A stretch of DNA of 54,689 bases from Acidobacteriota bacterium. GTDB taxonomy: Bacteria > Acidobacteriota > UBA6911 > JACQSX01 > JBPCNK01. Each line of letters opens with the position of its first letter. The first letter of the stretch is position 1. Positions 792-51,583 of this stretch are shown here, one piece after another. The translations under genes and the position numbers were made by a program. The stretch covers positions 1 to 54,689 of the forward strand of contig JBPCNK010000201.1 in the NCBI GenBank assembly GCA_051001345.1, given 5' to 3'. The notes beneath the pieces were generated by a model that saw nothing but the letters and a program-made list of their open reading frames with translations, was not told the DNA's origin and did no database searches.

Positions 792-1067
792 TCCTGCCCT
801 GGCCCGTTTTGAGCGGATTTTTTGAGAATCGCTGAGCGGGTGATATCAACTGGATTTACTTTCGCCAATCGCAACCGGTGGCGCTGGCCCGCTCGCGGTC
901 GCTCGCGGCTCTGTTAATGTTAATTGCGGCCCGATCGCATCCACGGGCTTCAGGTTCCAGGGCCCAGAGACCATGAATTAGAGATTGAATCCAAAACCAC
1001 AATTGTGCAATCCGCAATTGCCTGGAGCCTCGAGCCTGAAGTCTGAAGTCTGATTCATCAGCGTGAT

Positions 1068-1103
1068 TGCATCAAAGCATCAGTATTGGTATGCTTTGAT
1101 GCA
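1068..1103. promoter_or_regulatory. Candidate VapB/VapBC operator: perfect 13-bp inverted repeat TGCATCAAAGCAT-N10-ATGCTTTGATGCA
   Basis: Arms at 1068-1080 and 1091-1103. The right arm ends in the ATG (1103) of vapB-2. Type II TA operons are typically autoregulated at palindromes that overlap the promoter or start. Confidence 0.5.
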
Positions 1104-1351
1104 TGAGAACTACACTGACCTTGGACGACGATGTGGCTGCGCTGTTGAAACGTGCAAGAGAGAAGCGAAATACGAATCTGAGGGAGATTGTAAACGAAGC
1201 TCTGCGCGAGGGCTTGGCGCGCATGACCGCCCCGAACAAACCTTCCCGGCGTTACCGGACGCCAGCGGTTTCGCTCGGTCGGTGTCTGGTGGGCAGCCTC
1301 GATGATGTTGCAGAGGCGCTGGCGGTAGCCGAAGGCGAGGCCTTTCGTTGA
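1103..1351 (+). CDS. vapB: Type II antitoxin VapB
   Basis: 82 aa. N-terminus [38 protein letters not shown] is typical of VapB-type DNA-binding antitoxins. Stop overlaps the start of the PIN gene (TTGA at 1348-1351). Confidence 0.8.
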
Positions 1352-1791
1352 TTCTTGTTGACGCCAACCTGTTGATTTACGCTCACGTCGCCGGTCTGCC
1401 GCAGCACAAAGCTGCGCGTGTGTGGCTCGACGGCCGGCTCAACGGGATAATCCGTGTGGGTCTTCCCTGGCCGTGCCTGCTGGCTTTCGTGCGCCTGGTA
1501 TCCAACCCGCGCGTCTTCGAGCAGCCGGAGTCGATTTCGAGCGCTTGGGGCCAGGTAGAGCAATGGCTCGATCGCGACCCGGTTTGGATTCCTCAGCCAA
1601 CCGAACACCATCGCGAAGTTCTGGGCTCGCTACTTGCCAGAGGCGAACGATCCAATCTAGTCCCCGATGCTCATCTGGCCGCCCTGGCCATCGAACATGG
1701 ACTGAAACTTTGCTCGACGGACGGCGACTTTGCTCGCTTTCCAGGAGTGCAATGGGAAAACCCGCTGCTTGAAATGGGCGGAACCTCGTAG
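1348..1791 (+). CDS. vapC: PIN-domain ribonuclease toxin VapC
   Basis: 147 aa. [36 protein letters not shown]: classic PIN acidic quartet context. TTG start coupled to vapB. Confidence 0.85.
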
Positions 1792-1846
1792 GGTTCTGCA
1801 AAATGCCGGCGAGTCAGACTCGGCGCTGTTGTCGGCGCCACAATTA

Positions 1847-1979
1847 ACGGTGCCGCGAGCGACGCGAGCGGGTCCGCTGCGCTCATTTGGTCAGATGGTG
1901 GAAGTAAGTAACACAAATCTCAAATAGCTCGCCAGTATGGTCGGTGGCACTGACCCGCTCGCGTCGCTCGCGGCACCGT
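1847..1979. repeat. Perfect 28-bp inverted repeat (1847-1874 / 1952-1979) with 77-bp spacer, carrying the conserved 21-nt core
   Basis: ACGGTGCCGCGAGCGACGCGAGCGGGTC versus its exact reverse complement. Lies directly downstream of vapC-2. Confidence 0.9.
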
Positions 1980-2075
1980 TGATGGCCGCCCCGTTGGCAG
2001 GAGGGGACTTGAATCAGTTTTGCTCCGGGTATTCCATACCGCTAGGCATCGAACTCACGTGTTGTTAAGGAGCAA
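1973..2075. repeat. Degenerate direct copy of window positions 16-190 (region upstream of vapB-1 plus the first ~10 codons of vapB-1), with an internal deletion
   Basis: GGCACCGTTGATGGC.GCCCC.TTGGCAGG..GGGGACTTG.ATC.GTT.TGCTCCGG is shared by 16-80 and 1973-2030. GCATCGAACTCA.GT.TTGTTAA(A)GGAGCAA is shared by 161-192 and 2045-2075. Confidence 0.8.
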
Positions 2076-2138
2076 TCCGCAATCCCTGGAGCCTGAAGCC
2101 TGGAGCCTGACCCCTGACGAGGTGCTAGAATTGCCCCC

Positions 2139-4319
2139 ATGAGTCTCTCCCGGTCCAAGCGGAACATCTTCCTGCTGCTTGGCGCGTTGCTGTTTTTCAC
2201 CCTGCTGTTTGTCGCCAGTGAGTTTCTCAATCCCAGTTCGGTGGGAAACCCGAAATTCTCGAGCAATTTTTTTATCTTCGCGCTGCTGTCGGCGCTCAAT
2301 TTTCTGATCGTTGTTTCGCTGGCCTTTGTCCTGCTGCGCAACCTGATCAAGTTGTATTTCGAGTACCGCGGCGGGCGCTGGGGCTCGCGCATCAAGACCA
2401 AGCTGGTTTTGACCCTGGTGACTCTCTCGCTGGTGCCGTCCGTTCTGCTGTTCCTTCTGGCTTTCGGTCTGATCAATCGAAAACTCCAGGAATGGTCCAG
2501 CGCTCCGGCCGAGACGCTGGTCAGTTCAGCCAGCCGCATCGCCGAAGCCTACTATGCCCAGCGGCAGATCGACAGCATTGCGCTGGCCGAGCAGCTGGCC
2601 GGCCGGTATGTGGAATCGGGCCCGAGCCCTACCTCTATTGAGCCTCGCCGGTTTTTGTTCGAAGAGGTCCAGGCCGTGGCGCCCTCGGGAGCGGTCATCG
2701 GCGACACTCCCGTCAACAATTCCATTGGACGCGATCCGCGCCGCGCCGCCGCGCTCGAGCGGGCGCTGCAGGGACACCCCTTTTTTAACGCGCGCCGGGA
2801 CATCAAACTCGACCACGTTCTGGTGGCTGTGCCGCTGCGCTCCGATCACGGAGCGGCCATCCAGGGCGTGTTGCTGGCATCCTTCTCGATTCCGGAAAGC
2901 GTCGCGTTTCACGCCATCGAGGCGCAGAAGGCCGCCAGCCGCTATGCCGACCTGCAGCAACAGCGCAATCCGCTGCGGACAACCTACGTGCTCATCCTGG
3001 GGCTGACGACCGTCGTTGTTATTTTCGGCTTCACTTGGTTCGGGCTTTACATCGCGAAAAAAATTACGGTTCCGATTGAAGCGCTGGCCACCGGCGCACG
3101 GGAAATTGCGTCCGGAAATCTCAATCACCGCGTCGAGTGCGAAGCCGTCGACGAACTGGGCATCCTGGTGGACGGATTCAACCAGATGGCCGGAGATCTG
3201 CGGGGTCACAAGCAGGAGCTGGAGCGGACCAACGAGGACCTGCGCATCAGCAACCTGCGGCTGGACGAGCGGCGTCATTACATCGAGACCGTCCTCGAAA
3301 ATGTGGCAACCGGCGTCGTTTCGCTCAGCCGGCAGGGGGTCGTCTCGACCATCAACCGCGCCGCTGCGCTGATCCTGGGAGTGGACCGTGATCGTGCCGC
3401 CGGCCAGTCGCTCGAGACGATTCTGCCGGCAAGCGTGGCGCAGGAAATTGCGCGAATCGTGCAGAAGGCCCAGGTGTTCGGATCGTACCGCCGCGATGTG
3501 ACGCTCGAGCGGCAGCAGGGATCGGCGCACCTGGCCGTGACGGCTACGGTCAACTACGACGCCGAAAACAGCGAGCTCGGGCTCCTGCTGGTGCTCGACG
3601 ACATTACCGAGCTGATTCAGGCCGAGAAATTCGCCGCCTGGCAGGAAGTCGCCCGGCGCATGGCGCACGAAATCAAGAATCCGCTGACCCCGATTCAGCT
3701 GTCGGCCGAGCAGATCCTGCGCCGCGCCGAACGGATGGGTCCCGGCGAGAGCGCCGAGGTCTACCGCGAGTTTCTATTGGAGGTAGGTCGCATCATCGTC
3801 CAGGAAACGCGCACCCTCAAGAACATGGTCGATGAGTTCTCGCGCTTTTCGCGGCTGCCGCTGGCCCGCCCCGTGCCCTGCCAACTGCGCCAGATCATCG
3901 ACGATACGCTGGCGGCCTACAACGGCCGCTTTCAGAACGTGGAAATCCGGACCCAGATCGATCCGGGCGCCACCGAATTGCACGTTGATCCCGATCAATT
4001 CAAGCGCGCGCTCATCAACATTTTGGACAACGCCATCGAAGCGATGCAGGAAACGCCGCGGGACAAACGGGTTGACATCAGCGCGGCCCCCAACCCGCGG
4101 CATCGGTCCGTGCGCATCGAGATTGCCGACAACGGGCAAGGCATTTCCCAGGAAGACTACGAGAACCTTTTCTTGCCGTACTTCTCCACGAAGAAGCGCG
4201 GCACCGGCCTGGGGCTGGCCATTGTCCGACAGATTATTTCCGAACATCATGGCTACATTCGGGCCGAGGCGAATCACCCGTATGGGTCGAGGTTCATTAT
4301 TGAATTGCCCCAAGCATGA
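2139..4319 (+). CDS. Sensor histidine kinase, NtrY-like (N-terminal TM helices, HAMP, PAS, HisKA, HATPase_c)
   Basis: 726 aa. Hydrophobic N-terminus. H-box AHEIKNPLTPIQLSAE. N/G boxes ILDNAIEAM, DNGQGI, GTGLGLAIV. Confidence 0.85.
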   Translation: MSLSRSKRNIFLLLGALLFFTLLFVASEFLNPSSVGNPKFSSNFFIFALLSALNFLIVVSLAFVLLRNLIKLYFEYRGGRWGSRIKTKLVLTLVTLSLVPSVLLFLLAFGLINRKLQEWSSAPAETLVSSASRIAEAYYAQRQIDSIALAEQLAGRYVESGPSPTSIEPRRFLFEEVQAVAPSGAVIGDTPVNNSIGRDPRRAAALERALQGHPFFNARRDIKLDHVLVAVPLRSDHGAAIQGVLLASFSIPESVAFHAIEAQKAASRYADLQQQRNPLRTTYVLILGLTTVVVIFGFTWFGLYIAKKITVPIEALATGAREIASGNLNHRVECEAVDELGILVDGFNQMAGDLRGHKQELERTNEDLRISNLRLDERRHYIETVLENVATGVVSLSRQGVVSTINRAAALILGVDRDRAAGQSLETILPASVAQEIARIVQKAQVFGSYRRDVTLERQQGSAHLAVTATVNYDAENSELGLLLVLDDITELIQAEKFAAWQEVARRMAHEIKNPLTPIQLSAEQILRRAERMGPGESAEVYREFLLEVGRIIVQETRTLKNMVDEFSRFSRLPLARPVPCQLRQIIDDTLAAYNGRFQNVEIRTQIDPGATELHVDPDQFKRALINILDNAIEAMQETPRDKRVDISAAPNPRHRSVRIEIADNGQGISQEDYENLFLPYFSTKKRGTGLGLAIVRQIISEHHGYIRAEANHPYGSRFIIELPQA

Positions 4320-4336
4320 TGCTTTGCCAGCCGTCG

Positions 4337-4484
4337 GCCGTATGCCGTATGCCGCGAGCCGTATGCCGCTGGTTTCTATCGTGCATTCTGCGTTTTCCAC
4401 GTAGTCTTAGATATGCGCGGATGTCAGGACCTCGAAACTTACAAATAGTCGCGCGGCATACGGCATACGGCATACGGCATACGG
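4337..4484. repeat. Inverted pair of GCCGTAT heptamer arrays (4337-4368 forward, 4454-4484 reverse complement) between kinase and regulator genes
   Basis: GCCGTATGCCGTATGCCGCGAGCCGTATGCCG ... CGGCATACGGCATACGGCATACGGCATACGG. Strict 7-nt period. Confidence 0.95.
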
Positions 4485-4495
4485 AGTGACAGAGC

Positions 4496-5845
4496 GTGCC
4501 AACAGCTCGAATTCTCATCGTCGATGACGAAAAGAATGTCCGCACCTCGCTGGCGAGTATTCTCGACGGCGAAGGCTTTCATTGCGATCTGATCGCTTCG
4601 GGCGAGGAGTGCCTGGAGCGCATGCGCCAGAAGCTTTTCGATCTGGTGATTCTGGATGTGTGGTTGCCCGGCTGCGACGGTCTGGCGACCCTCGAAAAAA
4701 TCCGGACGGCTCACCCGGATGCACAAGTGGTGATGATCTCCGGGCACGCCTCCATTGAAACGGCGGTGCGCGCCACCAAGCTGGGTGCGTTTGACTTCCT
4801 GGAAAAGCCGCTCTCGCTTGAGAAGACTCTGGTGGTTGTAAAAAACGCGCTCAAACAACGTCAGCTGGAGCGCGAAAACCGCCTGCTGCGCGACCAGGTC
4901 GTCAAGGAATTGGTCATGATCGGCGAATCGGTTCCGATGCAGGCGCTGCGCCAGCAGATCGAGTTTGCCGCCCCGACCAACGCGCGCGTGCTGATTTTTG
5001 GCGAAAACGGCAGTGGCAAAGAGCTGGTCGCCCGCACGCTGCATGCGCGCAGCCTGCGCCGCGACCGCTCGCTGGTCGAAGTCAATTGCGCCGCCATCCC
5101 CGATGACCTGATCGAAAGCGAGCTGTTCGGATACGTCAAGGGCGCTTTTACCGGCGCCACGGAGAGCCGTGTCGGCAAATTCCAGCTGGCCGATCAAGGC
5201 ACGCTGTTCCTGGACGAAGTCGGCGACATGAGCCTCAAGACGCAATCCAAGGTGCTGCGCGTTCTGGAAGAACAGCGCTTTCATCCGCTCGGCAGCAACG
5301 ACGCGCTGGAAGTCGACGTGCGCGTTCTGGCGGCGACCAACAAGAATCTGGAGTTGGAAATCGAAAAGGGCGCCTTTCGCGAGGATCTATTCTATCGACT
5401 CAACGTGATCCCGTTTCAGGTTCCGCCTTTGCGCGACCGCCGCGAGGATATTCCGCTGCTGGTCGATCACTTCCTGCACGAGTTCGCGGGGCATTACGGC
5501 AAGGGCCCAAAGATGCTCGGGGCTTCGATTCTGGAGCGTTTCGAGCAGTACTCCTGGCCCGGAAACATCCGGGAACTGAAGAATACGATCGAGCGCCTCA
5601 TGATCATGGTCCCCGGCGACGAGGTGCATCAGTATCATCTGCCGCGGGCGATCGTCGCGCAGGAAGGGAGCCAGGCAGGCGCCAACGGCCAGGAATCACT
5701 CAAGGACGCGCGCGATACCTTCGAGCGCAATTACATTCTCAAGAAACTGGCCGAATTCGACGGCAACGTAGCCAAGGTGGCCGAAGCGCTCAATGTCGAG
5801 CGCAGCAATTTGTACAAGAAGATCAAGGCGTATGGAATTGAGTAG
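4496..5845 (+). CDS. Sigma-54-dependent response regulator (NtrC/AtoC family: REC + AAA+ + Fis-type HTH)
   Basis: 449 aa, GTG start. ILIVDDE...DLVILDVWLPG receiver domain. Walker A GENGSGKE. GAFTGA motif present. C-terminal HTH AKVAEALNVERSNLYKKIK. Confidence 0.9.
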   Translation: MPTARILIVDDEKNVRTSLASILDGEGFHCDLIASGEECLERMRQKLFDLVILDVWLPGCDGLATLEKIRTAHPDAQVVMISGHASIETAVRATKLGAFDFLEKPLSLEKTLVVVKNALKQRQLERENRLLRDQVVKELVMIGESVPMQALRQQIEFAAPTNARVLIFGENGSGKELVARTLHARSLRRDRSLVEVNCAAIPDDLIESELFGYVKGAFTGATESRVGKFQLADQGTLFLDEVGDMSLKTQSKVLRVLEEQRFHPLGSNDALEVDVRVLAATNKNLELEIEKGAFREDLFYRLNVIPFQVPPLRDRREDIPLLVDHFLHEFAGHYGKGPKMLGASILERFEQYSWPGNIRELKNTIERLMIMVPGDEVHQYHLPRAIVAQEGSQAGANGQESLKDARDTFERNYILKKLAEFDGNVAKVAEALNVERSNLYKKIKAYGIE

Positions 5846-5860
5846 GGGATGTCCGAGCCA

Positions 5861-5996
5861 GTCCGGGCCACGAGCGTAAGCGAGTGGGCAATCAGTGGCG
5901 GCATTTTGAATTACGAGTTACGAATTACGAGCTACGATAACCTTGCGTTTCGTAATTCGGTAATTTGTAACTCGTAATTATCGTTTGTGATTGCCC
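5861..5996. repeat. Composite palindromic element: conserved module GTCCGGGCCACGAGCGTAAGCGAGTGGGCAATCAGTGGC, then a TTACGAR heptamer hairpin
   Basis: Left arm 5885-5940 and right arm 5948-5996 are imperfect reverse complements. The module recurs at 17856-17894, 37132-37169 and, inverted, at 37270-37315. Confidence 0.9.
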
Positions 5997-6344
5997 GCCG
6001 CGTATTAGTTAAGTTAGAGACACTGTCTTTTTGCGGCTCTTCGTCAATTTGAATGCAGTAGAACAGGGACCGTGATGACGTAACGCAGCCGCCTGCGCGG
6101 GCTCCGCTGCTGGGGGGGCTGTTCGGCGGCCTTCCCAACTGAACAATGACGATCCCACTGGCCACCGGACCACCCGGACATGTCTTCTCTTGGCGTGACA
6201 ACACACAAAGGAGGACAAAGTGGGATCGCTGGACGAGGGACTCGGATTCCGGGACTGGATGTCGACTCTTACAACACCATTAAATGAGTTCGCGGCAGGG
6301 TTTACAGCCATCTAGCTATCGAAGCACGCGATTTCTTGGCGAAC

Positions 6345-6739
6345 TCATGGAGCCACCAAGAACACGTCATAGGCCCAACGGCCCACTGTTGCTCCCTTGT
6401 AATCCGAAATCTTCGCCCGGTATCGAAACTCATTTCCGAATTGGTCTTTCCGCTTGGACTCCTTATAGTCTAGATCCAAGCTCTCGATCTCCGAAGCCGG
6501 CAGACTATATAACTCTGTCGGTTCGGAGATACCGTTGTGGTTAGAGTCCCGCCAAAGGCGCAGTGACCTAAAGATTACATCCGCCCCGCTAATCTTGCCA
6601 TCGTTGTTGCCTCCATTCTCAACCCGGTCAAACTCGCCGAGGGCAAGAAACCCGTTCGGAAGTGCTGCGATCGGCTGCGGCGTAAAGCTTCCGAACAATT
6701 CCACGCCGCTATCGATGGTACCGTTACCATTTCGGTCTA
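6345..6739 (-). pseudogene. 3' fragment of an IS-disrupted secreted Ca-binding-like protein (EF-hand-like DxNxNGxID loops)
   Basis: The reading frame continues upstream of track ORF 6345..6704 as [17 protein letters not shown]. It joins in frame to the 5' fragment once the IS and one TA are removed. Confidence 0.8.
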
Positions 6740-6794
6740 CAGTAACGGCAATAAATAACTTGACATAGATCTGGGGCCCGCATAAGCTTTATGC

Positions 6795-7840: not shown

Positions 7841-7851
7841 TGCCGTTACTG

Positions 7852-8499: not shown

Positions 8500-8524
8500 C
8501 GTCGGTTTCCACTTACGCCTCGAG

Positions 8525-10636: not shown

Positions 10637-10638
10637 TG

Positions 10639-14685: not shown

Positions 14686-17808
<3,123 letters not shown>

Positions 17809-17838: not shown

Positions 17839-17997
17839 GAGCGGGTCCGGCGCCTGTCCGGGCCGCGCGCATAAGCGAGCGGGCGATCAGTGGCGCGATG
17901 TTCACGGGTAATGGCGACGCCACCCGGGATGAAGAGCACGCAGCCCTGGGAGGCGCCGCCGATGTCAGTGCCGTACCCGGAAGGGTACGGGTAATCG

Positions 17998-19576: not shown

Positions 19577-21031
19577 ATGAGAAAAAACAGATTGTCCTTC
19601 AATTTTTGCTGTTCGGGACTGTGTTGGAAAGCGCTGATCATGGCCGGCCTGCTTGCGGCGGTGGCAACGGCAGAAACGGAGAACCGAGCCGCAACGCAGG
19701 AAGCAGTCAAACCCAATATCGTCTTCATTCTCGCTGATGATTTAGGACGCGCAGACGTTGGCTTCAACGGCGGCAAAGAGATCAAAACGCCGAACATTGA
19801 CCAGCTTGCAGCATCGGGAGCACGCCTCGATCAATTTTATGTGCAACCTGTTTGCACACCAACGCGCGCCGCATTGATGACCGGACGCTACCCGATGCGG
19901 CACGGGTTGCAGGTCGGTGTCGTGCGCCCCTGGGCGCAATATGGCTTGCCACTGGCGGAGCGGACTCTGCCGCAGGCATTGAAAGAAGCCGGTTATGCGA
20001 CAGCCATCATCGGCAAATGGCATTTGGGACATTTTCAGCCCGCCTACCTGCCAACCCGCCGCGGATTTGATCATCAGTATGGTCAATACAATGGCGCGAT
20101 TGATTACTTCAGCCACGAGCGCGACGGCGGACACGACTGGCATCGTGATGACAAAGCCAGTCATGACGACGGCTACAGCACGCATTTGCTGGCGCAAGAT
20201 GCTGTGAAGTTCATCCGCAATAACGGCGGCGCCAAGCCATTTTTTCTTTACGTTCCCTTCAACGCCGTACACGCGCCACACCAGGTGCCGGACAAGTACA
20301 AAGAATCCTACGTGCGTCTGCAAGAGCCACGCCGCACTTACGCCGGAATGCTCGCGGCGATGGATGAAGCGATTGGACAGCTCATTGCGGCGCTTGATGA
20401 AAAGGGTTTGCGCGAAAACACACTCATCATCTTCTCTAGTGATAACGGAGGGCCCGCGCCGGGGCGTGTGACTGACAACGGTTTGTTCCGCGCGGGCAAG
20501 GCAACGCTTTACGAGGGTGGTGTGCGCGCAGCCGCATGCGTGGCCTGGAGAGGCCGCATCCAATCGGGTACAGTCATCAACCAACCCTTGCATATGGTGG
20601 ATTGGTATCCGACTTTGCTCAAGCTCGGCGGGGCCTCGCCAAAACAGGAACTGCCGCTTGATGGCCGCGATGCGTGGGCGGCGATCGCCGCAGGCAAGAC
20701 TTCGCCGCACCAGGAAATTCTGATCAATACCACGCCGACCAATGGTGCGATTCGCATGGGGGATTGGAAGCTTGTTCTGAATGGCAGCAGAAGCAGTGGG
20801 GAGGCCGGCGAAGTTGACGGCGGCAAGGATCAGACGAAGAACGGCGATGTTTTAGAGCTTTTCAACCTCAGCGACGATCCCTATGAAAAGAAAAATTTGG
20901 CTGACCAGAATCCTGACAGAGTGAAAGAACTGCGAGCCCGTTACGACAAACTAGCGGCACAAGCCGTCCCGCCAGAGATCAAGCCCAAAGCGCCAGGTTT
21001 CAAAGTTCCCAAAGTATGGGGCGAGCAATGA
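19577..21031 (+). CDS. Arylsulfatase (formylglycine-dependent sulfatase family)
   Basis: Signal-like N-terminus. NIVFILADDLG. CTPTRAALMTGR (C-x-P-x-R formylglycine motif). GKWHLG. Confidence 0.9.
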   Translation: MRKNRLSFNFCCSGLCWKALIMAGLLAAVATAETENRAATQEAVKPNIVFILADDLGRADVGFNGGKEIKTPNIDQLAASGARLDQFYVQPVCTPTRAALMTGRYPMRHGLQVGVVRPWAQYGLPLAERTLPQALKEAGYATAIIGKWHLGHFQPAYLPTRRGFDHQYGQYNGAIDYFSHERDGGHDWHRDDKASHDDGYSTHLLAQDAVKFIRNNGGAKPFFLYVPFNAVHAPHQVPDKYKESYVRLQEPRRTYAGMLAAMDEAIGQLIAALDEKGLRENTLIIFSSDNGGPAPGRVTDNGLFRAGKATLYEGGVRAAACVAWRGRIQSGTVINQPLHMVDWYPTLLKLGGASPKQELPLDGRDAWAAIAAGKTSPHQEILINTTPTNGAIRMGDWKLVLNGSRSSGEAGEVDGGKDQTKNGDVLELFNLSDDPYEKKNLADQNPDRVKELRARYDKLAAQAVPPEIKPKAPGFKVPKVWGEQ

Positions 21032-21127
21032 GCAACCGTATGCCGTATGCCGCAGGCCGGCGACGGAGCACCAACAGAGCCGCGACCGTGAGGGAGCGGC
21101 GGCATACGGCATACGGCATACGGTTGC
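21032..21127. repeat. 96-bp palindromic element: GCAACC(GTATGCC)n - GGAGCACCAACAGAGCCGCGACCGTGAGGGAGCGG - (GGCATAC)nGGTTGC
   Basis: Starts immediately after the sulfatase stop codon. 21032-21099 is 68/68 identical to 50180-50247. Confidence 0.95.
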
Positions 21128-32930: not shown

Positions 32931-32952
32931 GCAGTGGCCAGTGGCCAGTGCC
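32931..32952. repeat. CCAGTGG heptamer array (short)
   Basis: GCAGTGGCCAGTGGCCAGTGCC, directly after the PilZ gene stop. Confidence 0.9.
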
Positions 32953-33019
32953 GCGCCCGGGAGGGTGCGGGTCCTCTTCAAGAATCTGCCGCGAATTGAT
33001 TCAGCTGACCGTTGTCAAA

Positions 33020-36397: not shown

Positions 36398-37067
36398 GCT
36401 TATAGGTTTCCTGGTAGTAGACACACAGATCGGTCAGAGGACATAGAGGACATTTCGGTTTGCGCGCCTGGCAAATCTGCCGGCCGTGATCGATCAAAAG
36501 AAACGACAACTTGATCCAGTCCTGGCGGGGAAACAGTCCCATCAGATCGGACTCGATCTTCTTGGGATCGGCATGCCGGCTGAATCCCAGCCGAGCCGAG
36601 AGACGCTTTACATGGGTGTCAACGACGACCCCGTCGGCGATTCCAAAGGCGGTGCCCAATACGACATTGGCTGTCTTGCGCGCCACTCCCGGCAGTTGGA
36701 GTAGCTGCTCCATGGTTTGCGGCGCCTTCCCGCCGTGTTCCTCGACGATCTTGCGCGCGCAGCCCTGGATGGCGCGCGCCTTGTTCCGAAAAAACCCCGT
36801 AGAACGGATGATCTGCTCCAGTTCGTCCGGGTTGCTGTCGGCCAGTGCGGCGGCAGTCGGGTATCTCTTGAACAAGGAGGGAGTGACCAGGTTGACCCGT
36901 ACGTCGGTGCATTGGGCCGACAGAATCGTCGCCACGAGGAGCTGCAAAGATGAGCGATGCTTTAAAGCGCAATGCGCGTCCGGATAGAGCTTTTTGAGCC
37001 GTCCGACAATTTTCCTGCAGCGCTCAACGTCGGCTGCTTTTTTCCGGGGCCCCATTGTGGCAGCCAT
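36381..37067 (-). CDS. nth: Endonuclease III
   Basis: LVATILSAQCTD..VN, the HhH-GPD motif LPGVARKTANVVL, and the C-terminal 4Fe-4S cluster C..RKPKCPLCPL...C. Confidence 0.9.
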   Translation of the reverse strand: MAATMGPRKKAADVERCRKIVGRLKKLYPDAHCALKHRSSLQLLVATILSAQCTDVRVNLVTPSLFKRYPTAAALADSNPDELEQIIRSTGFFRNKARAIQGCARKIVEEHGGKAPQTMEQLLQLPGVARKTANVVLGTAFGIADGVVVDTHVKRLSARLGFSRHADPKKIESDLMGLFPRQDWIKLSFLLIDHGRQICQARKPKCPLCPLTDLCVYYQETYKHASAL

Positions 37068-37077
37068 GATAGCAGGA

Positions 37078-37315
37078 TTCAGGGGTCAGGATTCAGGGGT
37101 CAGGGTTCAGGGAATCAACAGTGCCCGGCATGTCCGGGCCGCGACCGTAAGGGAGCGGGCAATCTCAGGAACAATTACGGATTGCGAGTACGAGTTACGA
37201 AACGTGAAGTTTGTGCGTCTTAATTCGCAATTCTTACCTCGTAATTCGTACCTCGTAATTCGTAGTTCGAAATGCTGCCATTGATTGCCCACTCGCTTAC
37301 GCTCGTGGCCCGGAC
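37078..37315. repeat. Composite element: CAGGGGT arrays, then a ~185-bp palindrome GTCCGGGCC...GGGCAATC...(TTACGAG)n / (CTCGTAA)n...GATTGCCC...GGCCCGGAC
   Basis: Left arm 37132-37203, right arm 37222-37315. The right end (37270-37315) is 44/46 identical to the reverse complement of 5861-5906. Confidence 0.9.
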
Positions 37316-37429
37316 ATTGCGGCGCCGACTAGATGCTGGAGGTGTAAAAGATCGTCGAGCCGGCCGAGGCCCAAAGGCCACGTCACGCGTATCACACCTT
37401 TTTTCGCTGGCGCGTTGTAAAATAGGGCC

Positions 37430-37675
37430 ATGAAGAAAGCGCTTGTCTCTCTGGCCGCTGGCGCTTCAGTCGTCGTTTTTCTTCAGTGGATGACACCGGA
37501 CGCGCAGGCCACGTTGAAGTACCGCAAAGAAACCGACCGGAAGTGCCTCTTTTGCCATACGGCCATTCCCAAGAGGGGCGCCGAAGATCCCCTGCTAAGC
37601 GAAGACGGCAAGAAGTTCAAAGAGAATGACTACAAACTGACCGACGAACAAAAACGAAAGCCCGATCCGGAATAA
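37430..37675 (+). CDS. Small secreted monohaem c-type cytochrome (tentative)
   Basis: 81 aa. Signal-like N-terminus. A single CLFCH (CxxCH) motif. Lies upstream of the Rieske/cytochrome b genes. Confidence 0.55.
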   Translation: MKKALVSLAAGASVVVFLQWMTPDAQATLKYRKETDRKCLFCHTAIPKRGAEDPLLSEDGKKFKENDYKLTDEQKRKPDPE

Positions 37676-45238: not shown

Positions 45239-45351
45239 GCTGGTCCGAAAGTGCCTTCCTGGGAGCGCGGGCGTCCCGCTCGCACAACCTGGCACTGCGT
45301 TAGATGCGCGCGGGACAAGCGCGCCCCCGGGCTGCTCAACGGAAATCCACC

Positions 45352-45717
45352 ATGGAACGACAGCCGATCAACCTGGCCGACAAGTTTTCCAAGTTCTCGG
45401 AACACTGGGCGCCCAAAATCATCGCTCGAATGAATGACTATCACTTCACGCTCGTCAAGTTTCAAGGCGAGTTTGTCTGGCACAACCACTCCCATACCGA
45501 CGAAGTGTTCGTCGTTGTCGACGGGTCAATGACAATTCATTTTCGAGACGGGGACGTTCAGGTAGGCGCCGGGGAATTGTTCGTGATCCCAAGGGGTGAG
45601 GAGTACAAAACTTCGGCCCAGGCCGAGTGCAGGGCCATGGTTGTCGAAACTGCTGGCACAATCAACACGGGCGATGTCGTCAGCGAGAAAACTTCCGCGG
45701 ATGACGTCTGGATCTAG
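45352..45717 (+). CDS. Cupin domain protein
   Basis: GEFVWHNHSHTDEVFVVVDG...G.LFVIPRGEEYK, the two cupin motifs. ATG 45352 preferred. Confidence 0.75.
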   Translation: MERQPINLADKFSKFSEHWAPKIIARMNDYHFTLVKFQGEFVWHNHSHTDEVFVVVDGSMTIHFRDGDVQVGAGELFVIPRGEEYKTSAQAECRAMVVETAGTINTGDVVSEKTSADDVWI

Positions 45718-45733
45718 CTCGGAAGGAGAGCCA

Positions 45734-46588
45734 ATGGCAATAGCGAAGGGTACTCGACGAGCCCGCACATGGGGCGCAGTTGTAATCGCGCTTGTGCTGA
45801 CCACAGCGCTAGCGTTCGGCCAAACGACGCCGGCTGCTGCCGGCAAGGTCGTCGCCGTCAACGGTATCGAGATGTACTACGAAAGCACCGGGCAGGGAGA
45901 GCCGCTGGTTCTGCTCCACGGTTTCAACGCGTCTGGCGAGGCGTGGGCCGGCGTGGTTGGAGAATTCGCGAAACACTATCGGGTGGTAGTGCCCGATCTC
46001 CGAGGACACGGGCGCTCGACCAACCCTGCAAACCGATTCACCCACAGGCAGTCGGCCCTGGATGTTTTCGCCCTCCTTGACGAGCTCGGGATTAAGCAGT
46101 TCAAAGGGATGGGTATCAGCACCGGCGGGATGACGCTGATTCATATGGCAACGCAACAGGCCTCCCGAGTCGAAGCCATGGTCCTGATTGGCGCGACGAT
46201 TTACTTCCCCGAGCAGGCGCGAGAAATCATGAGGAAAGCGACAGTGGAGAGCTTGACGCCCGCTGCCTACGAGCGCAGGCGCCGAACCCACAAGCGCGGG
46301 GACGAGCAAATCAGGGCGCTTCAACAGCAGTTTCACGAATTCAAGGACAGCTACGACGACATGAACTTCACAGGTCCGTATCTTTCGACTATTACCGCAC
46401 GCACCTTGATCGTACACGGCGATCGCGATCAGTTCTTTCCCGTGGCGATTCCCGTGGAGATGTACCGTTCCATTCCGAACTCCTTGCTCTGGATCATTCC
46501 ACGCGGCGGCCACGTTCCCATCTTTGACCCGTTAGTGCCGTTTACAGCGACGAGTCTGAAATTCTTGAAAGGTTGGGACAACCAATAA
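45734..46588 (+). CDS. Alpha/beta hydrolase (secreted)
   Basis: GGAAGGAGAG RBS precedes ATG 45734. Signal-like N-terminus. LLHGF, nucleophile elbow GISTGG, C-terminal GGH. Confidence 0.8.
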   Translation: MAIAKGTRRARTWGAVVIALVLTTALAFGQTTPAAAGKVVAVNGIEMYYESTGQGEPLVLLHGFNASGEAWAGVVGEFAKHYRVVVPDLRGHGRSTNPANRFTHRQSALDVFALLDELGIKQFKGMGISTGGMTLIHMATQQASRVEAMVLIGATIYFPEQAREIMRKATVESLTPAAYERRRRTHKRGDEQIRALQQQFHEFKDSYDDMNFTGPYLSTITARTLIVHGDRDQFFPVAIPVEMYRSIPNSLLWIIPRGGHVPIFDPLVPFTATSLKFLKGWDNQ

Positions 46589-46722
46589 AGGACAAAGGAC
46601 AAAGGACTAAGGACTAAGGACGAGTTACAGATTGCGCAGGGCTTCCTCGTTCTTGGCACCGTAATCCGCACCTCGCACTTCGTCCTTTGTCCTTCGTCCT
46701 TCGTCCTTTGTCCTTCGTAGTT
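46588..46722. repeat. Palindromic GGACAAA/GGACTAA/GGACGAG element
   Basis: AAGGACAAAGGACAAAGGACTAAGGACTAAGGACGAG (46588-46624) versus CGTCCTTTGTCCTTCGTCCTTCGTCCTTTGTCCTTCG (46681-46717). Confidence 0.9.
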
Positions 46723-46843
46723 CAATCGCCCGTGATTCTCACCGGCACCGATCTTGCAAGGCACGGTGTTCGAGTGGCTTCCTCGTGTTGCAAACCCTGC
46801 CAGAATGAGATAGCCTTATAGTTTTTCAAGAAAGGAATCGATC

Positions 46844-47623
46844 ATGTCTAAGAGGAACCTGTTTGTACTGTTCGCAATCGCGGCTTTGGCTCTGGCCGTC
46901 GGTTGCGGCAAGGCCGAAGAACCAGCACCTGTAACAACTGCTCCGCCGGCCGCCGCGCCGGCCGCTGCAGTCGACCCGGCGACGGCTGGGAGTATTACTG
47001 GGAAAATCAGCTTCGAAGGCGCAAAACCGAAGGCCAAATCGATCCGCATGGATCAGGACGCCTTCTGTGCCAAGGCGCACGCCACACCGATTTTCTTCGA
47101 AGATGTCGTGGTCAACGACAATGGAACGCTGCGTAACGTTCTGGTTTACGTAAAAGGCGGACTGGAAGGCCGGACGTTTCCAACACCCGCCGAGGCAGCC
47201 AAACTCGACCAGTCAGCCTGCCAGTACGTTCCCCACGTCGTCAGTCTGATGAAGGACCAAAAGCTTGACGTAGTCAACTCCGACAGCACCAATCACAATG
47301 TCAACGTGCTGGCCGAACAGAATCGGCCGTGGAATAAATCGCAGGCGCCCAACAAGTCCGACGTCGAGTCGTTTCCACGCGAGGAGATCGTCATTCCAGT
47401 CAAGTGCAACATCCATCCCTGGATGAAGTCCTACATTGGCGTCTTCAGCCATCCGTTCCACGCCGTCACGGGCGCCGACGGGACCTTCGAGCTGAAGGGT
47501 CTGCCGCCCGGTGACTACGAAATCGAAGCCTGGCACGAGAAGTATGGAACGAAGACCCAGAAGGTGACCGTCGCAGCCTCGGAAGCCAAGGCCGCCGATT
47601 TCGCATTCCAGCCCGCACCTTAA
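46844..47623 (+). CDS. Lipoprotein with a cupredoxin-like region (CxxHxxM) and a C-terminal carboxypeptidase-regulatory-like domain (tentative)
   Basis: Lipobox LAVGC. KCNIHPWM resembles a type-1 Cu ligand spacing. GADGTFELKGLPPGDYEIEAWHEKYG resembles a CarboxypepD_reg fold. Confidence 0.45.
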   Translation: MSKRNLFVLFAIAALALAVGCGKAEEPAPVTTAPPAAAPAAAVDPATAGSITGKISFEGAKPKAKSIRMDQDAFCAKAHATPIFFEDVVVNDNGTLRNVLVYVKGGLEGRTFPTPAEAAKLDQSACQYVPHVVSLMKDQKLDVVNSDSTNHNVNVLAEQNRPWNKSQAPNKSDVESFPREEIVIPVKCNIHPWMKSYIGVFSHPFHAVTGADGTFELKGLPPGDYEIEAWHEKYGTKTQKVTVAASEAKAADFAFQPAP

Positions 47624-47642
47624 GGAGGCAAAGGGCTTGTGT

Positions 47643-47671
47643 GGCACAGGGTAGAAGTAAAGCCCTGTGCC
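47643..47671 (+). other. Stem-loop GGCACAGGG-N11-CCCTGTGCC downstream of the lipoprotein gene
   Basis: 9-bp perfect stem with no T-run. Possibly a terminator or processing site. Confidence 0.35.
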
Positions 47672-47698
47672 GCACCTCCTATCGGAACTTAATTGGCC

Positions 47699-48634
47699 AT
47701 GAATATTTGGCTGCACCGCTACGCGGTCCTGGTCGCCTGCTGCACGTTTGTCCTGATCATCGCCGGCGCGCTGGTCACAAGCAATGACGCAGGGCTAGCG
47801 GTCCCGGACTGGCCGACTTCTTTCGGCGGTTTCAATCCGCCGATGGTCGGCGGCGTGTTTTACGAGCACGGTCACCGCATGGTGGCCTCGGCCGTTGGCT
47901 TGCTGACGATTGTTCTCGCTGTCTGGCTATGGCGCACGGAGCGCCGCCGCTGGGTCCGGAGGCTGGGTTGGATCGCGCTGGCAGCCGTTGTTGCACAAGG
48001 TCTGCTGGGCGGCTTGACGGTTATTTTTCTGCTCCCGACCCTTGTTTCGGTCGCTCACGCCTGCCTGGCACAAGCCTTTTTCTGCCTGACCGTCGCGCTG
48101 GCGTTGTTTACCTCGCGCAGCTGGCTGAATACCGCCGCACGGCTGGAGCCAAGCGGCGGTCCCTCCATCCATCCGCTGACGATTCTAACGGCGGGCGCTG
48201 TCTATCTGCAGTTGATTCTTGGCGCAACGCTTCGCCACTCCGCCATCTCCGTGACGCCGCATGTTCTGGGCGCCATAGCAGTCAGCGTCCTGGTGCTGGC
48301 GACCGGTATCCGGGTCTTTCGCTTTTATGGTAGTGTCAACGAGTTGGCGCGGCCTGCTGCCTTGCTGGTGTCATTCTTGATCGTCCAGCTGTTTGCGGGA
48401 CTGGGCGCCTACTGGGTTCGGATCTCAAAGATATCCGAATTGCAGCCGACTCGCGTTTCCGTTGTCATTACCACGACACACGTCGCCGCTGGCGCGTTGG
48501 TGCTGGCCACAGCCGTCGTTTTGGCGCTGCGCTGCCATCGACGGGTGCGGCGGCCGGGAACGCTTGGGGTCAAGTGGGCATCAGGTCTCCGAGCCACGAC
48601 CGTCAGGCAGCGGGCCCGCAGGTCGAAAGCTTGA
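47699..48634 (+). CDS. ctaA: Haem A synthase (COX15/CtaA family)
   Basis: LVTSNDAGLAVPDWPTSFG, EHGHRMVAS, 8 TM helices. ATG 47699 (the track starts at TTG 47693). Confidence 0.85.
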   Translation: MNIWLHRYAVLVACCTFVLIIAGALVTSNDAGLAVPDWPTSFGGFNPPMVGGVFYEHGHRMVASAVGLLTIVLAVWLWRTERRRWVRRLGWIALAAVVAQGLLGGLTVIFLLPTLVSVAHACLAQAFFCLTVALALFTSRSWLNTAARLEPSGGPSIHPLTILTAGAVYLQLILGATLRHSAISVTPHVLGAIAVSVLVLATGIRVFRFYGSVNELARPAALLVSFLIVQLFAGLGAYWVRISKISELQPTRVSVVITTTHVAAGALVLATAVVLALRCHRRVRRPGTLGVKWASGLRATTVRQRARRSKA

Positions 48635-48673
48635 GCTGCAATTCTCGCTGAAAGAGCGAGCGAAGAGTACGAC

Positions 48674-49600
48674 ATGAAAACCGGATCGCAGGCCATCACA
48701 GTTGACAGCGGCCAGCCCGCTGCGCCGACGCTGGTACTTCCACGTGTCTGGTCGGGTTCTGATTTTTTCGAACTGACCAAGCCGCGTGTCACGCTGATGG
48801 TCGTGCTAACGACACTGGTAGGCTATCTGATGGGAAGCGGCAGCCCCATAGATTGGCGAGCAATGCTGTACGCTCTCGGCGGAACCGCGCTGGTAGCCGC
48901 AAGCGCCGCCGCTCTAAACCAGTTCCTCGAACGCCGCTGGGATGCGCAGATGCGCCGAACCGAAAACCGTCCGCTGGCCTCCGGACGTCTGCACCCGCTG
49001 TCCGCTCTCGCCTTTGCGCTGGCGCTGCTGGCGGCGGGACTGGCGACGCTGCTGGTTAAGGTCAATCTCCTGACAGCGGGCTTGGCGTTGGCGACCTGTC
49101 TGAGTTATCTCCTGCTGTACACGCCGCTGAAGCGGCTCACCCCTTTGTGCACGGCCATCGGGGCGGTACCCGGCGCCATCCCCCCGGTGATGGGGTGGAC
49201 GGCAGCGGGGCAGCCGCTGGACGCTGCGGCCGGCGCGCTGTTCGCCATCCTGTTCCTCTGGCAGTTCCCGCATTTTCTGGCCATCGCCTGGATGTATCGC
49301 GAGGACTATGCGCGCGCCGGATTCAAGATGCTGCCCGTCATCGATCCTCTCGGGAGATCCATGGGACGTCAGGTTGTGCTGTTCAACGCGGTCCTGATTC
49401 CGGTAAGCATTATGACAACCTGGCTGGGCTTGACCGGGATGTTGTTTGCCGCCGCCGCGTTAGGTCTCGGTCTGTTCTATCTGGTCGCAGGACTCCGATT
49501 GGCCCGGCAGCCCAACGCTGTTAGCGCGCGGCGATTGCTGCTGGCCTCCGTGATGTACCTGCCCGTCCTGCTGGTGGTCATGGTCCTCGACAAGCAGTGA
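48674..49600 (+). CDS. ctaB: Protohaem IX farnesyltransferase (haem O synthase)
   Basis: ELTKPRVTLMVVLTTLVGY, NQ..ER..D..M.RT..RPL UbiA-type motifs. Confidence 0.9.
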   Translation: MKTGSQAITVDSGQPAAPTLVLPRVWSGSDFFELTKPRVTLMVVLTTLVGYLMGSGSPIDWRAMLYALGGTALVAASAAALNQFLERRWDAQMRRTENRPLASGRLHPLSALAFALALLAAGLATLLVKVNLLTAGLALATCLSYLLLYTPLKRLTPLCTAIGAVPGAIPPVMGWTAAGQPLDAAAGALFAILFLWQFPHFLAIAWMYREDYARAGFKMLPVIDPLGRSMGRQVVLFNAVLIPVSIMTTWLGLTGMLFAAAALGLGLFYLVAGLRLARQPNAVSARRLLLASVMYLPVLLVVMVLDKQ

Positions 49601-50022
49601 CCGTTTACGACCTGCCGGCAGTCAACGCCGCGCTCAATGCGACCAGCGCACTGCTCCTTGTGCTGGGTTGGTTTTTCATACGTGCCCGGCGCATCGCCGC
49701 ACACCGCCGCTGCATGGTAGCCGCCGTCTGCACGTCGACCCTTTTTCTGGCCTGTTATCTCACCTATCATTTCTTTGCGGGGGCGACGACCTTCAAAGGC
49801 CAGGGCTGGATCCGGACGGTGTACTTTTCCATCTTGATCAGTCACACGATCCTGGCCGTCGCAGTCGTGCCGCTGGTTGGGGTGACGTTGTTCCGCGCCT
49901 GGCGCGAGCGTTTTGACCGGCATCGCGCCGTAGCCCGCTGGACGCTGCCGATATGGCTGTACGTTTCGGTGACAGGGGTGCTGGTTTACTGGATTCTGTA
50001 CCACGTCGTCCCGTCGCGCTGA
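49597..50022 (+). CDS. DUF420 membrane protein (CtaM-like)
   Basis: LPAVNAALNATSALLLVLGWFFIR...H...M, 4 TM helices. GTGA overlap with ctaB. Confidence 0.75.
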   Translation: MTVYDLPAVNAALNATSALLLVLGWFFIRARRIAAHRRCMVAAVCTSTLFLACYLTYHFFAGATTFKGQGWIRTVYFSILISHTILAVAVVPLVGVTLFRAWRERFDRHRAVARWTLPIWLYVSVTGVLVYWILYHVVPSR

Positions 50023-50121
50023 AGCGGGCCTGGTTTTTTTTGGGCCAAGGGCACTGCCCGAGCGGGACACTCGCAGCCTTCACGTTTGAGATGGCGGAAG
50101 GCCTTTCAATTGAAACAGCCG

Positions 50122-50304
50122 AACGCTCTGCGGTGCAGTGAAAAACTGCTTCACGACAGAGACACAGCGCAGCAAGGCCGCAACCGTATGCCGTATGCCG
50201 CAGGCCGGCGACGGAGCACCAACAGAGCCGCGACCGTGAGGGAGCGGGCCGGCAGATGGACGGCGTAATCGAGAATCGTCGCGAAATGTGAAGGTTTCAC
50301 TCAT
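50122..50304. repeat. Left long inverted-repeat block flanking the HEAT gene: TCTGCGGTGCAG module, GCCGTAT array, conserved core, CGAGAATCGTCGCGAAATGTGAAGGTTTCACTCAT
   Basis: 50181-50255 matches the reverse complement of 51478-51552 at 74/75. 50270-50304 matches the reverse complement of 51386-51420 (about 32/35). Confidence 0.95.
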
Positions 50305-50310
50305 TAGTTC

Positions 50311-50416
50311 TACAGAGGACACAGAGAAAACACAGAGAAAAACTTCGGACCAAAGAACCGACTGACCGTAATCCCGCATTTCTCTGTGTTCCTCTGTGTC
50401 CTCTGTGTCTCTGTGG
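50311..50416. repeat. CACAGAG-rich hairpin
   Basis: TACAGAGGACACAGAGAAAACACAGAGAAAAAC versus TTTCTCTGTGTTCCTCTGTGTCCTCTGTGTCTCTGTGG. Confidence 0.85.
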
Positions 50417-50471
50417 TGAAGACGGTCAAAAATCGGCCCCAGTTTTCCCGGGCCGCGCAAGCGGCGAAACT

Positions 50472-51278
50472 ATGAAAAAACCGCTCGCAATGATCCTGGT
50501 TGCGGCCACCTTCGTAGTGGTTCCGTTCCTGACGTGGTACCTGACATGGTTTGGGCGCCCGCTGGACGATGCCAAGGTCGCAAAGTATCTGCGCGATTCT
50601 GCTCATCCCCGACGCCAGCAGCACGCTCTCGTGCAGCTTGCCGCTCGGATGGAGCGGCGCGACCCGGACGTACGCCGCCTGTATCCCGAAGTGTTGTCGC
50701 TGGCGAGTGACCAGCGCCCTCCAATCCGAGTCATGGCCGCGTGGATTATGGGTCAGGACAACACCAGCGACGAGTTTCGCGCGGCCCTGGCCGGTTTATT
50801 GAAAGACACCAACGCGCTGGTGCGTCGCAACGCGGCTCTGTCGCTGGTCCGTTTTGGCGACAAGCGGGCTCATCCGGAAATTGTCGCAATGCTCGGGTCG
50901 ATCGACCTGAAGGCGCCGTCGCAGGGACGTGTCGTCGGATTGGTTGAAGAGGGTAGCAGCGTTGGTCCCGGTCATCGAGTGGCCCGTATAGAGGTGTACG
51001 GAGCGGCGCCTGTCGAACTTGTCGCGTCTGTACCGGGTAAAGTCCATCTTCGGACCGGAGAGAATACTCTCGTTGCTGCTGGCGAAACCGTGATGGTGCT
51101 GTTGCCCGAAGAGCAACACGTTTGGGAAGCGTTGCGCGCACTGTATCTGATCGGAAACCAGGAGGACGCTGCGCTGGTAGAGCGCTTCACGAAAAGCGAT
51201 GCCAATTTCAGCCAACGTGTCCGCAGCCAGGCCGAGCAGACGTTTCGCCGGTTGAGTAAGGCGCCCCCGGGATTCTAG
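50472..51278 (+). CDS. HEAT-repeat protein with an N-terminal TM anchor and a C-terminal lipoyl/barrel-sandwich-like segment
   Basis: DPDVRR...PPIRVMAAWIMG...LLKDTNALVRRNAALSLVRFGD are HEAT/PBS-lyase-like repeats. Confidence 0.6.
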   Translation: MKKPLAMILVAATFVVVPFLTWYLTWFGRPLDDAKVAKYLRDSAHPRRQQHALVQLAARMERRDPDVRRLYPEVLSLASDQRPPIRVMAAWIMGQDNTSDEFRAALAGLLKDTNALVRRNAALSLVRFGDKRAHPEIVAMLGSIDLKAPSQGRVVGLVEEGSSVGPGHRVARIEVYGAAPVELVASVPGKVHLRTGENTLVAAGETVMVLLPEEQHVWEALRALYLIGNQEDAALVERFTKSDANFSQRVRSQAEQTFRRLSKAPPGF

Positions 51279-51323
51279 TCGGCGCCACATCAACGGAGCG
51301 ATACTGCGGATGGGCCGCGCATA

Positions 51324-51583
51324 GCCGCAACCGTATGCCGTATGCCGCGGGCCGGCGACGGAGCACCAAAAGAGCCGTAGTATTCATGAGTGAAACCTTC
51401 GCATTTCGCGACGATTTTCGGGACACAGGAGAACACAGAGAGAAGCGGCTTACGAGTCCTACGACTACGCCTTCAATCTGCCGGCCCGCTCCCTCACGGT
51501 CGCGGCTCTGTTGGTGCTCCATCGCCGGCCTGCGGCATACGGCATACGGTTGCGCGGCTAAGCCGCGCTGCACCGCAGACTAG
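51324..51583. repeat. Right inverted-repeat block. It is itself a palindrome (arms 51324-51377 / 51503-51556) and ends in CTGCACCGCAGACTAG
   Basis: See the entry for 50122-50304. The outer tip 51566-51583 is the reverse complement of CTAGTCTGCGGTGCAG. Confidence 0.95.

Follow-up and report, generated by a model that had tools for sequence, protein, structure and literature searches.

A G/A-mismatched hairpin repeat in an acidobacterial genome and its probable link to class 3 HUH-Y1 transposases

What is the short core sequence that recurs between the genes of an acidobacterial contig, and what could have spread it there? The question is raised by contig JBPCNK010000201.1 (54,689 nucleotides, analysed as a whole and hereafter called the window), which belongs to the 4.87-Mb draft genome of an uncultured Acidobacteriota bacterium (GCA_051001345.1; 378 contigs, 59% G+C). 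An earlier note on this DNA had described ten intergenic copies of a core of 21-22 nucleotides with complementary ends and had likened it to a repetitive extragenic palindrome (REP), a type of element recognised by RAYT transposases. According to the analyses presented here, the core is very probably a REP hairpin whose family relies on class 3 HUH-Y1 transposases encoded elsewhere in the same genome.

Class 3 of the TnpA_Y1 proteins was defined by Quentin, Siguier, Chandler and Fichant (2018, BMC Genomics 19:475; PMC6006769). Class 3 proteins carry the motifs NHVH, W[TA] and YV[VI][AENY]EQ and are found mainly in Planctomycetes, Acidobacteria and Proteobacteria, and their genes are accompanied by "atypical secondary structures" with a CnGA foot; Solibacter usitatus is credited with about 600 hairpin copies and three class 3 genes (PMC6006769). 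Table S1 of the same paper lists CCGAG-CCGCGACCGTAAGGGAGCGG-A, folded as .....((((..((....))..))))., from Legionella pneumophila, together with close variants in S. usitatus and Planctomyces limnophilus. The 20-mer CCGCGACCGTAAGGGAGCGG occurs 82 times in the genome studied here, and because Table S1 lists the identical hairpin, the window element is regarded as a further example of a system already in print. The literature searched contained no later paper on class 3 TnpA_Y1.

When the degenerate 22-mer of the earlier note was searched in the window with up to two mismatches, ten sites were found, against 0.01 expected from shuffled sequences. Eight of these sites are copies already reported (those beginning at 888, 5867, 17862, 21079, 37138, 37288, 50227 and 51485; Table 1), and two are additional, degenerate copies beginning at 32950 and 48593, while the 21-nt copies at 1852 and 1954, both with a 3-nt loop, were confirmed by direct reading of the sequence. 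All ten copies described earlier are therefore present, their variants were correctly listed, and they do lie between plausible open reading frames (ORFs). Only the degenerate copy at 48593 overlaps an ORF of the window, at the last bases of 47693-48634.

The repeat unit consists of a 5' foot, CnGnG, followed by CCRC-GA-NN-(3-4 nt loop)-N'N'-GA-GYGG, in which CCRC and GYGG form an outer stem of 4 bp, the two GA dinucleotides oppose each other as a 2x2 internal loop of G/A mismatches, and an inner stem of 2 bp closes the short loop. The loops seen include GTAA, GTGA, GGAA, GTCA, GAC, GACC, GCA and others, and are often GNRA-like; RNAfold returned ((((..((....))..)))) for most of the ten window copies folded. 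The outer CCRC/GYGG ends pair as had been proposed, but the stretch described as a loop of about 12 nt is itself structured, being made up of the G/A mismatches, a covarying 2-bp inner stem and a terminal loop of only 3-4 nt. The CnGnG foot is present at 93% of 645 copies and the exact CnGA-G at 24%, the feet found being CAGTG, CGGTG, CAGAG, CCGGG and CCGAG, and subfamilies with different core variants have distinct conserved flanks.

The covariation of the R/Y positions noticed in the window extends to the whole genome: among matches to a relaxed pattern, CCGC..GCGG (556) and CCAC..GTGG (156) stand against 26 A.C and 33 G.T combinations. The outer pair of the inner stem is G-C in 342 copies, C-G in 246 and A-T in 36, and one subfamily, GAAC..GAGA (about 75-95 copies), has an A.A mismatch at this position. 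Covariation was tested against shuffled controls on 51 distinct 20-mers from this and other genomes. The test found 95.1% of cells paired, against 82.3% in the shuffles, a value reached by none of 500; double-sided changes numbered 36 against 12.1 in shuffles, and slid controls gave at most 0.04 against 0.329. Common descent of the copies makes these counts larger than the true number of independent events. Hairpins beside homologous genes of other genomes may have GCCC/GGGC, GCGC/GCGC, CAGC/GCTG or CCCG/CGGG as outer stem and CG/CG, CA/TG or CT/AG as inner stem; the constancy of GA in those genomes is no independent finding, because the scan patterns required the GA mismatches.

The core is an abundant repeat, with about 650 copies in the genome, or roughly one per 7 kb. 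A strict pattern matched 545 times, an intermediate one 649 times against 2 in the control, and a relaxed one, in which only CC.CG and GAG.GG are fixed, 870 times against 163 in the reversed genome, so that the excess over controls ranges from 5-fold for the relaxed anchor to more than 300-fold for stricter patterns. Of 645 filtered copies compared with crude coding-sequence (CDS) calls covering 81% of the genome, 540 (84%) lie wholly outside the calls; only nine lie more than 150 nt inside a called ORF, and most other overlaps involve over-extended ORF ends. Simple compositional bias, of which the earlier note had expected equal frequency inside coding regions to be the sign, does not fit this distribution. 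Among tandem, convergent and divergent gaps the copies are spread roughly in proportion to gap length.

These counts bear on the view that GC-rich intergenic DNA gave rise to the motif by chance or through its composition, or else that a nucleoid protein or another host protein with no part in transposition binds it. The base composition of the genome and the many other repeats that fill its intergenic DNA are compatible with such an origin, and enterobacterial REPs and bacterial interspersed mosaic elements (BIMEs) bind IHF and gyrase, a precedent for a host-protein site. A chance origin is nevertheless refuted by the controls, and the excess of matches, the covariation of both stems and the tie of the motif to one protein family across phyla leave this whole explanation with hardly any credibility.

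That protein family was recovered from the same genome. A profile search with Pfam Y1_Tnp returned five loci, and a protein search added a further gene; three weak Pfam matches and the gene from the protein search are four paralogs of one family, narrowly above the Pfam cut-off, 57-62% identical to each other and all located outside the window (Table 1). Each paralog is flanked by two to five hairpins of its own core subfamily, several per side, usually with a + copy on the left and a - copy on the right, the exception being the gene on contig C6, where both flanking copies are on the - strand. The HUH motif H102-V-H104 is invariant in 15 homologues, the paralogs themselves reading RHVH, AHVH or QHVH with a preceding residue that is not always N. 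Y161 and Q166 are likewise invariant (YVVRRQ, YVLNEQ, YVIHEQ and YVVKQQ in the four paralogs), as is W140, the residue after it being S in this genome and T, S or A among homologues. An AlphaFold2 model (pLDDT, the predicted local distance difference test, 80) has 4ER8, the E. coli RAYT bound to a REP, as its closest fold, followed by the TnpA proteins of ISDra2 and IS608; these matches come from the fold search, a PDB search by sequence alone having returned nothing. Homologues are often named "REP element-mobilizing transposase RayT" in the automatic annotation of the Joint Genome Institute (JGI). The reading of the core as the recognition element of a REP/RAYT-type system, as suggested earlier, is supported by four HUH-Y1 paralogs flanked by the core, by homologues across phyla and by the pairing in the literature, but the proteins are not canonical class 2 RAYTs and the foot is not GTAG.

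The association of gene and hairpin reaches well beyond this genome. Among 30 relatives, the core is most frequent in the genomes G005 (145 copies), G012 (66), G015 (66) and G004 (52), with a few more at low counts and the rest at background, and the class 3 protein was found in G001, G003, G004, G006, G007 and G012. To judge by the source names of the closest homologues, the genome of the window is probably that of an acidobacterium related to Bryobacterales. A scan with one genome per species returned 80 homologous loci, mostly from Bryobacterales or Terriglobia, with further loci in Legionellaceae, Singulisphaera, Deltaproteobacteria, Anaerolineales, Chloroflexaceae, Chthonomonadales, Alcaligenaceae and Acetobacteraceae. 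The same CC.CG...GAG.GG core lies within 500 nt of the gene at 41 of the 80 loci, including those of Legionellaceae, Singulisphaera, Deltaproteobacteria, Anaerolineales, Chloroflexaceae, Chthonomonadales and many Bryobacterales. A generic GA-hairpin is present in the 400-nt gene flanks at 45 of the 80, where such hairpins are about 19 times denser than further away.

Copies that accompany transposase genes could also be the ends or remnants of autonomous insertion sequences (IS) of the IS200/IS605 type, rather than parts of a REP system with a host-retained transposase. Such an origin would agree with the class 1-like Y----Q motif, with the presence of several paralogs per genome, with a patchy distribution across phyla that suggests horizontal transfer, and with the description of class 3 as a possible intermediate between IS and REPtron in the defining paper (PMC6006769). 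It is very unlikely all the same, as hundreds of hairpins have no gene nearby, several hairpins stand on each side of a gene, as in REPtrons, and the score against the IS200 model of NCBIfam is below the cut-off. Nor are the four genes recent IS copies, because their mutual identity is so low and each is associated with a different hairpin subfamily.

For a REP family served by class 3 transposases, a mechanism may be outlined by analogy with IS608, ISDra2 and the E. coli TnpA_REP, in which the class 3 protein would bind the hairpin as it folds in single-stranded DNA. The specificity of this binding probably resides in the G/A mismatches and the foot, since these do not change whereas the two stems covary. 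Cleavage and rejoining might then occur at or near the foot via the HUH and Tyr residues, again as the related enzymes would suggest, and the intergenic DNA would in this way come to be populated by singles as well as doublets. An effect on RNA or transcription, through selection on the transcript or transcription-coupled targeting, is likely as a secondary layer, because lone copies next to stop codons are mostly in sense orientation.

Single copies number 396 in the genome, and the remaining 250 or so are grouped into 104 pairs and 12 larger clusters; inverted doublets amount to about 100. The dominant type among neighbouring pairs within 400 nt is the +/- (convergent) one, with 86 of 133 pairs and modal spacers of 35 and 42 nt, and the long hairpins into which such doublets fold have energies of -49 to -70 kcal/mol. 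In many of them two core variants are joined at fixed spacings, for instance CCACGAGC..GTGG with CCGCGACC..GCGG; doublets of the CCAC-GAGC + CCGC-GACC type, with 42-43-nt spacing, are exemplified by C42:14733-14814 and C50:1840-1921. Because the arms are different core variants, it is still possible for either arm to fold into a small hairpin by itself. Two of the doublets lie in the window (1852/1954 and 37138/37288), and the variant pairing of the second recurs elsewhere in the genome with 42-43-nt spacers.

The orientation of lone copies is strongly biased relative to transcription. Of those located up to 150 nt past a called stop, 160 have the sense and 30 the antisense orientation (84% sense; p about 1e-22), at a median distance of 49 nt from the stop; in 15 of the sense cases the called stop lies inside the element, a possible artefact of ORF calling, and the ratio is 145:30 when these are left out. 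About one lone copy in two lacks a stop codon within this distance. Between co-directional genes there are 114 sense and 62 antisense copies, and in convergent gaps 55 of 64 match the orientation of the nearest gene. The window copies beginning at 5867, 17862, 21079, 32950, 48593 and 50227 are all on the + strand behind + strand genes, and in G005, a member of another family, 40 regions around apparently lone copies yielded 11 sense and one antisense case. The bias is strongest in subfamilies with GNRA loops (21:4 and 15:3, for example). Near-consensus copies, the youngest class, are already biased (13:5, or 72% sense) and older ones reach 86-87%, but the numbers are too small for this age trend to separate insertion preference from selection. 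A position close to stop codons is known for the REPs of E. coli; such an orientation rule for class 3 elements was not found in the literature searched.

This bias is an argument for a hairpin that acts mainly as RNA, namely a 3'-UTR (untranslated region) stem-loop with two sheared G.A pairs and a GNRA tetraloop, whose role would be to stabilise or process the mRNA upstream of it or to influence the termination of translation, with the Y1 link being secondary. In its favour are the sense excess past stops, in convergent gaps and in the second genome, and the fact that it is the sense strand that provides the RNA-stable G.A and GNRA features, the antisense strand giving pyrimidine mismatches. 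Such a role as the primary one is nonetheless improbable, given that class 3 Y1 genes of several phyla have this hairpin on their flanks, mostly in the + left / - right layout, that the clustered copies occur in both orientations, and that a stop is missing near so many of the lone ones. Across the window, Rfam 15 gave no match at the gathering score, and a search of 36900-37500 with E values up to 1 gave a single chance-level hit (E 0.99). T-runs are not enriched either, and an intrinsic terminator was rejected on this ground: a run of at least four T occurs within 45 nt downstream in 11.6% of cases against 14% of background non-coding windows, the CCAC..GTGG subfamily alone being higher (28%).

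It is tempting to speculate, if only tentatively, that lone class 3 REPs are not neutral passengers but are inserted, or retained, in sense orientation up to about 150 nt past stop codons. Either the G.A/GNRA hairpin would have been co-opted for the 3' end of the mRNA, with a part in stability, processing or the termination of translation, or the class 3 enzyme would be directed to the non-template strand where this lies exposed at the 3' end of a transcribed gene. If this rather doubtful proposal were true, the near-identity of a 20-nt hairpin across phyla would reflect a double constraint, by protein and by RNA.

Several observations weigh against dependence of the hairpin on class 3 transposases. 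The strong sense bias near stops is not explained by the transposase model alone. No orientation bias was detected relative to replication with a per-contig GC-skew proxy, which has little power in a draft assembly; a strictly lagging-strand-coupled mechanism might predict one. The paralogs fall below the NCBIfam cut-offs for both RAYT and IS200, scoring 20-25 bits against NF047646 (REP_Tyr_transpos, cut-off 80 bits) and 21-28 bits against NF033573 (IS200/IS605, cut-off 55 bits), and 35 of the 80 homologous loci have no such hairpin nearby. G015, which is 97% complete, contains its 66 copies with no detectable intact class 3 gene, and G005, 63% complete, has only a 31-residue gene fragment; a looser gene search in G002, G005 and G015 yielded fragments or nothing. 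The co-occurrence of gene and repeat is only partial because of these two assemblies, in which either the gene was left unassembled or the repeats outlived the loss of the transposase. Finally, the defining paper states that experiments on class 3 activity are still required (PMC6006769).

A further repeat of the same intergenic DNA had to be considered in this context. Tandem heptamers, with units such as CCGTATG, GGTCAGG, ATTGGGG and AGTCGCC, account for 2,686 period-7 calls by Tandem Repeats Finder (TRF) in 4.87 Mb and are far more numerous than the REP core. The earlier note had favoured the core over the heptamers as the recognition element. The heptamers are no closer to cores than to random non-coding positions: a period-7 array is found at a distance of up to 30 nt from 18% of cores and from 19% of such positions, and heptamer arrays were accordingly rejected as a part of the REP system. 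They are a repeat class separate from the REP core, some REP subfamilies carrying a heptamer run inside their own conserved flank.

The copies of the window, together with the transposase genes and examples of heptamer arrays, are collected in Table 1. The 3-nt loop subfamily of the copy at 1852 has 71 members genome-wide, and the long hairpin around the copy at 21079 folds with -73.4 kcal/mol (z -6.6). The membership of the hairpin at 32950-32971 is uncertain, as it may be a converted family member or an unrelated look-alike. At 50227-51506, the two long-flank copies enclose a single HEAT-repeat ORF in the + left / - right layout that is also seen at class 3 genes; this bracketing could be a coincidence or a mobilisable composite.

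Table 1. Hairpin copies and heptamer arrays of the window, and class 3 Y1 genes on other contigs of the same genome
Feature	Position	Strand	Hairpin	Foot	Remarks
REP hairpin	888..909	-	GCCGCGAGCGACCGCGAGCGGG; loop GACC	CAGAG	single copy; folds ((((..((....))..))))
REP hairpin, 3-nt loop subfamily	1852..1872	+	CCGCGAGC-GAC-GCGAGCGG	CGGTG	left arm of inverted doublet
REP hairpin	1954..1974	-			right arm of doublet with 1852 copy; 81-nt spacer
REP hairpin	5867..5888	+	CCAC..GTGG; GTAA loop	CCGGG	22 nt past stop of ORF 4496-5845; sense
REP hairpin	17862..17883	+	CCGCGCGC-ATAA-GCGAGCGG	CCGGG	54 nt past stop of ORF 14686-17808; sense
REP hairpin	21079..21100	+	CCGCGACC-GTGA-GGGAGCGG	CAGAG	tip of long hairpin formed by inverted CCGTATG heptamer runs
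Variant or uncertain copy	32950..32971	+	GCCGCGCCCGGGAGGGTGCGGG	CAGTG	foot and outer stem kept; GA..GA changed to GC..GT, giving a fully paired stem
REP hairpin	37138..37159	+	CCGCGACC-GTAA-GGGAGCGG		left arm of doublet of two different core variants
REP hairpin	37288..37309	-	CCACGAGC-GTAA-GCGAGTGG		right arm of doublet with 37138 copy; 128-nt spacer
Degenerate copy	48593..48614	+	GCCACGACCGTCAGGCAGCGGG	CCGAG	GA changed to CA; A.C mismatch in outer stem; 3' end of ORF 47693-48634
REP hairpin, long-flank subfamily	50227..50248	+			more than 60 nt of conserved flanks including CCGTATG heptamers
REP hairpin, long-flank subfamily	51485..51506	-			inverted copy of the subfamily of 50227; with it brackets HEAT-repeat ORF 50472-51278
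Heptamer array	4337-4368				
Heptamer array	4454-4484				
Heptamer array	21030-21050				
Heptamer array	21101-21125				
Class 3 Y1 paralog	C263:5831-6433	-			
Class 3 Y1 paralog	C73:4426-4932	+			
Class 3 Y1 paralog	C6:233-724	+			
Class 3 Y1 paralog	C118:1460-1951	+			

Some features lie beside the Y1 genes of the other contigs. The start of contig C6 comprises the 3' end of a class 3 gene and its downstream REP, which are encountered again after the complete gene (L003:1-70 and 775-850) and suggest that a tandem duplication took place or that the assembly is collapsed here; the gene is preceded (63-230) by a run of units of about 15 nt, CGCGGCACCGCnnnn, resembling half-hairpins. The strongest Y1_Tnp match, a classic IS200/RAYT-like gene of 150 aa on contig C75, was rejected as a cognate of the core, since it is flanked by separate inverted repeats of 48 nt that have a GTAG foot and the hairpin CCCGCCC-TCAC-GGGCGGG (L001:1311-1358 and 1906-1953; gene at 1405-1857 on the - strand). 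This GTAG-tagged hairpin has not spread, since it has only about eight occurrences in the genome. Next to the C75 gene there are four tandem repeats of 55 nt each (L001:1956-2181) as well as a run of heptamers (1086-1174), and contig C290 carries another small IS200-like Y1 gene.

Assignment of the core to a REP family accounts for one of the commonest intergenic repeats of the genome and gives a role to four "transposase-like" genes, with a value that is mainly one for annotation because the system is already in the literature. At the same time, a defined hairpin with constant G/A mismatches, four gene-subfamily pairs and an orientation rule provide concrete substrates and predictions for class 3 enzymes.

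Comparison with known systems places the element among the short repeats linked to HUH-Y1 proteins. With the class 2 REP/RAYT systems of Enterobacteria and Pseudomonas and their REPINs, REP doublets that form hairpins (Nunvar 2010; Bertels & Rainey 2011; Messing 2012, PDB 4ER8), it shares short extragenic palindromes in hundreds of copies, the occurrence of singles and inverted doublets, a HUH-Y1 gene flanked by inverted copies, paralog-specific subfamilies and a best structural match to 4ER8. It lacks the GT[AG]G foot, its hairpin, with a constant G/A internal loop, is much shorter, and its protein differs from class 2 RAYTs in an extended conserved N-terminal region, in Y----Q instead of YxxxNP and in a score of 20-25 bits, far below the RAYT cut-off of 80. 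Class 2 REPs are largely lineage-specific, whereas the hairpin described here is nearly identical across phyla. Inverted pairs whose fixed spacing lets them fold into a single long hairpin, a feature of REPINs (Bertels & Rainey 2011), are found here as well, but most copies are single. REPINs are also associated with a single-copy, vertically inherited RAYT; the genome studied here has four diverged, non-identical paralogs, and the family has a patchy distribution among relatives and phyla.

The HUH-Y1 fold and catalytic residues, imperfect hairpins, which in IS are recognised on single strands, and a class 1-related Y motif connect the element with IS200/IS605 (IS608, ISDra2), from which it is distinguished by hairpins that have spread without the gene and by genes that are diverged and not repeated as IS units. 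No tnpB was seen beside the four class 3 genes in the ORF lists, though no search aimed at it was made. Doublets of two core variants, inverted and at fixed spacings, recall the BIMEs of E. coli with their alternating Y and Z REPs, although the sequence family and the class of the cognate protein are different.

Compared with the class 3 system of Quentin et al., the present case comes from another genome and differs in its CnGnG foot and in its four paralogs, each with its own subfamily. Doublets of two core variants, independence from heptamers and the sense bias past stops were not found in the passages and table rows of that paper that were consulted. The features in common are the protein motifs xHVH, W[ST] and YVxxxQ, several flanking hairpins with a CnGA-type foot, several related genes, as in S. 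usitatus, hundreds of copies, and a hairpin whose sequence and fold are identical.

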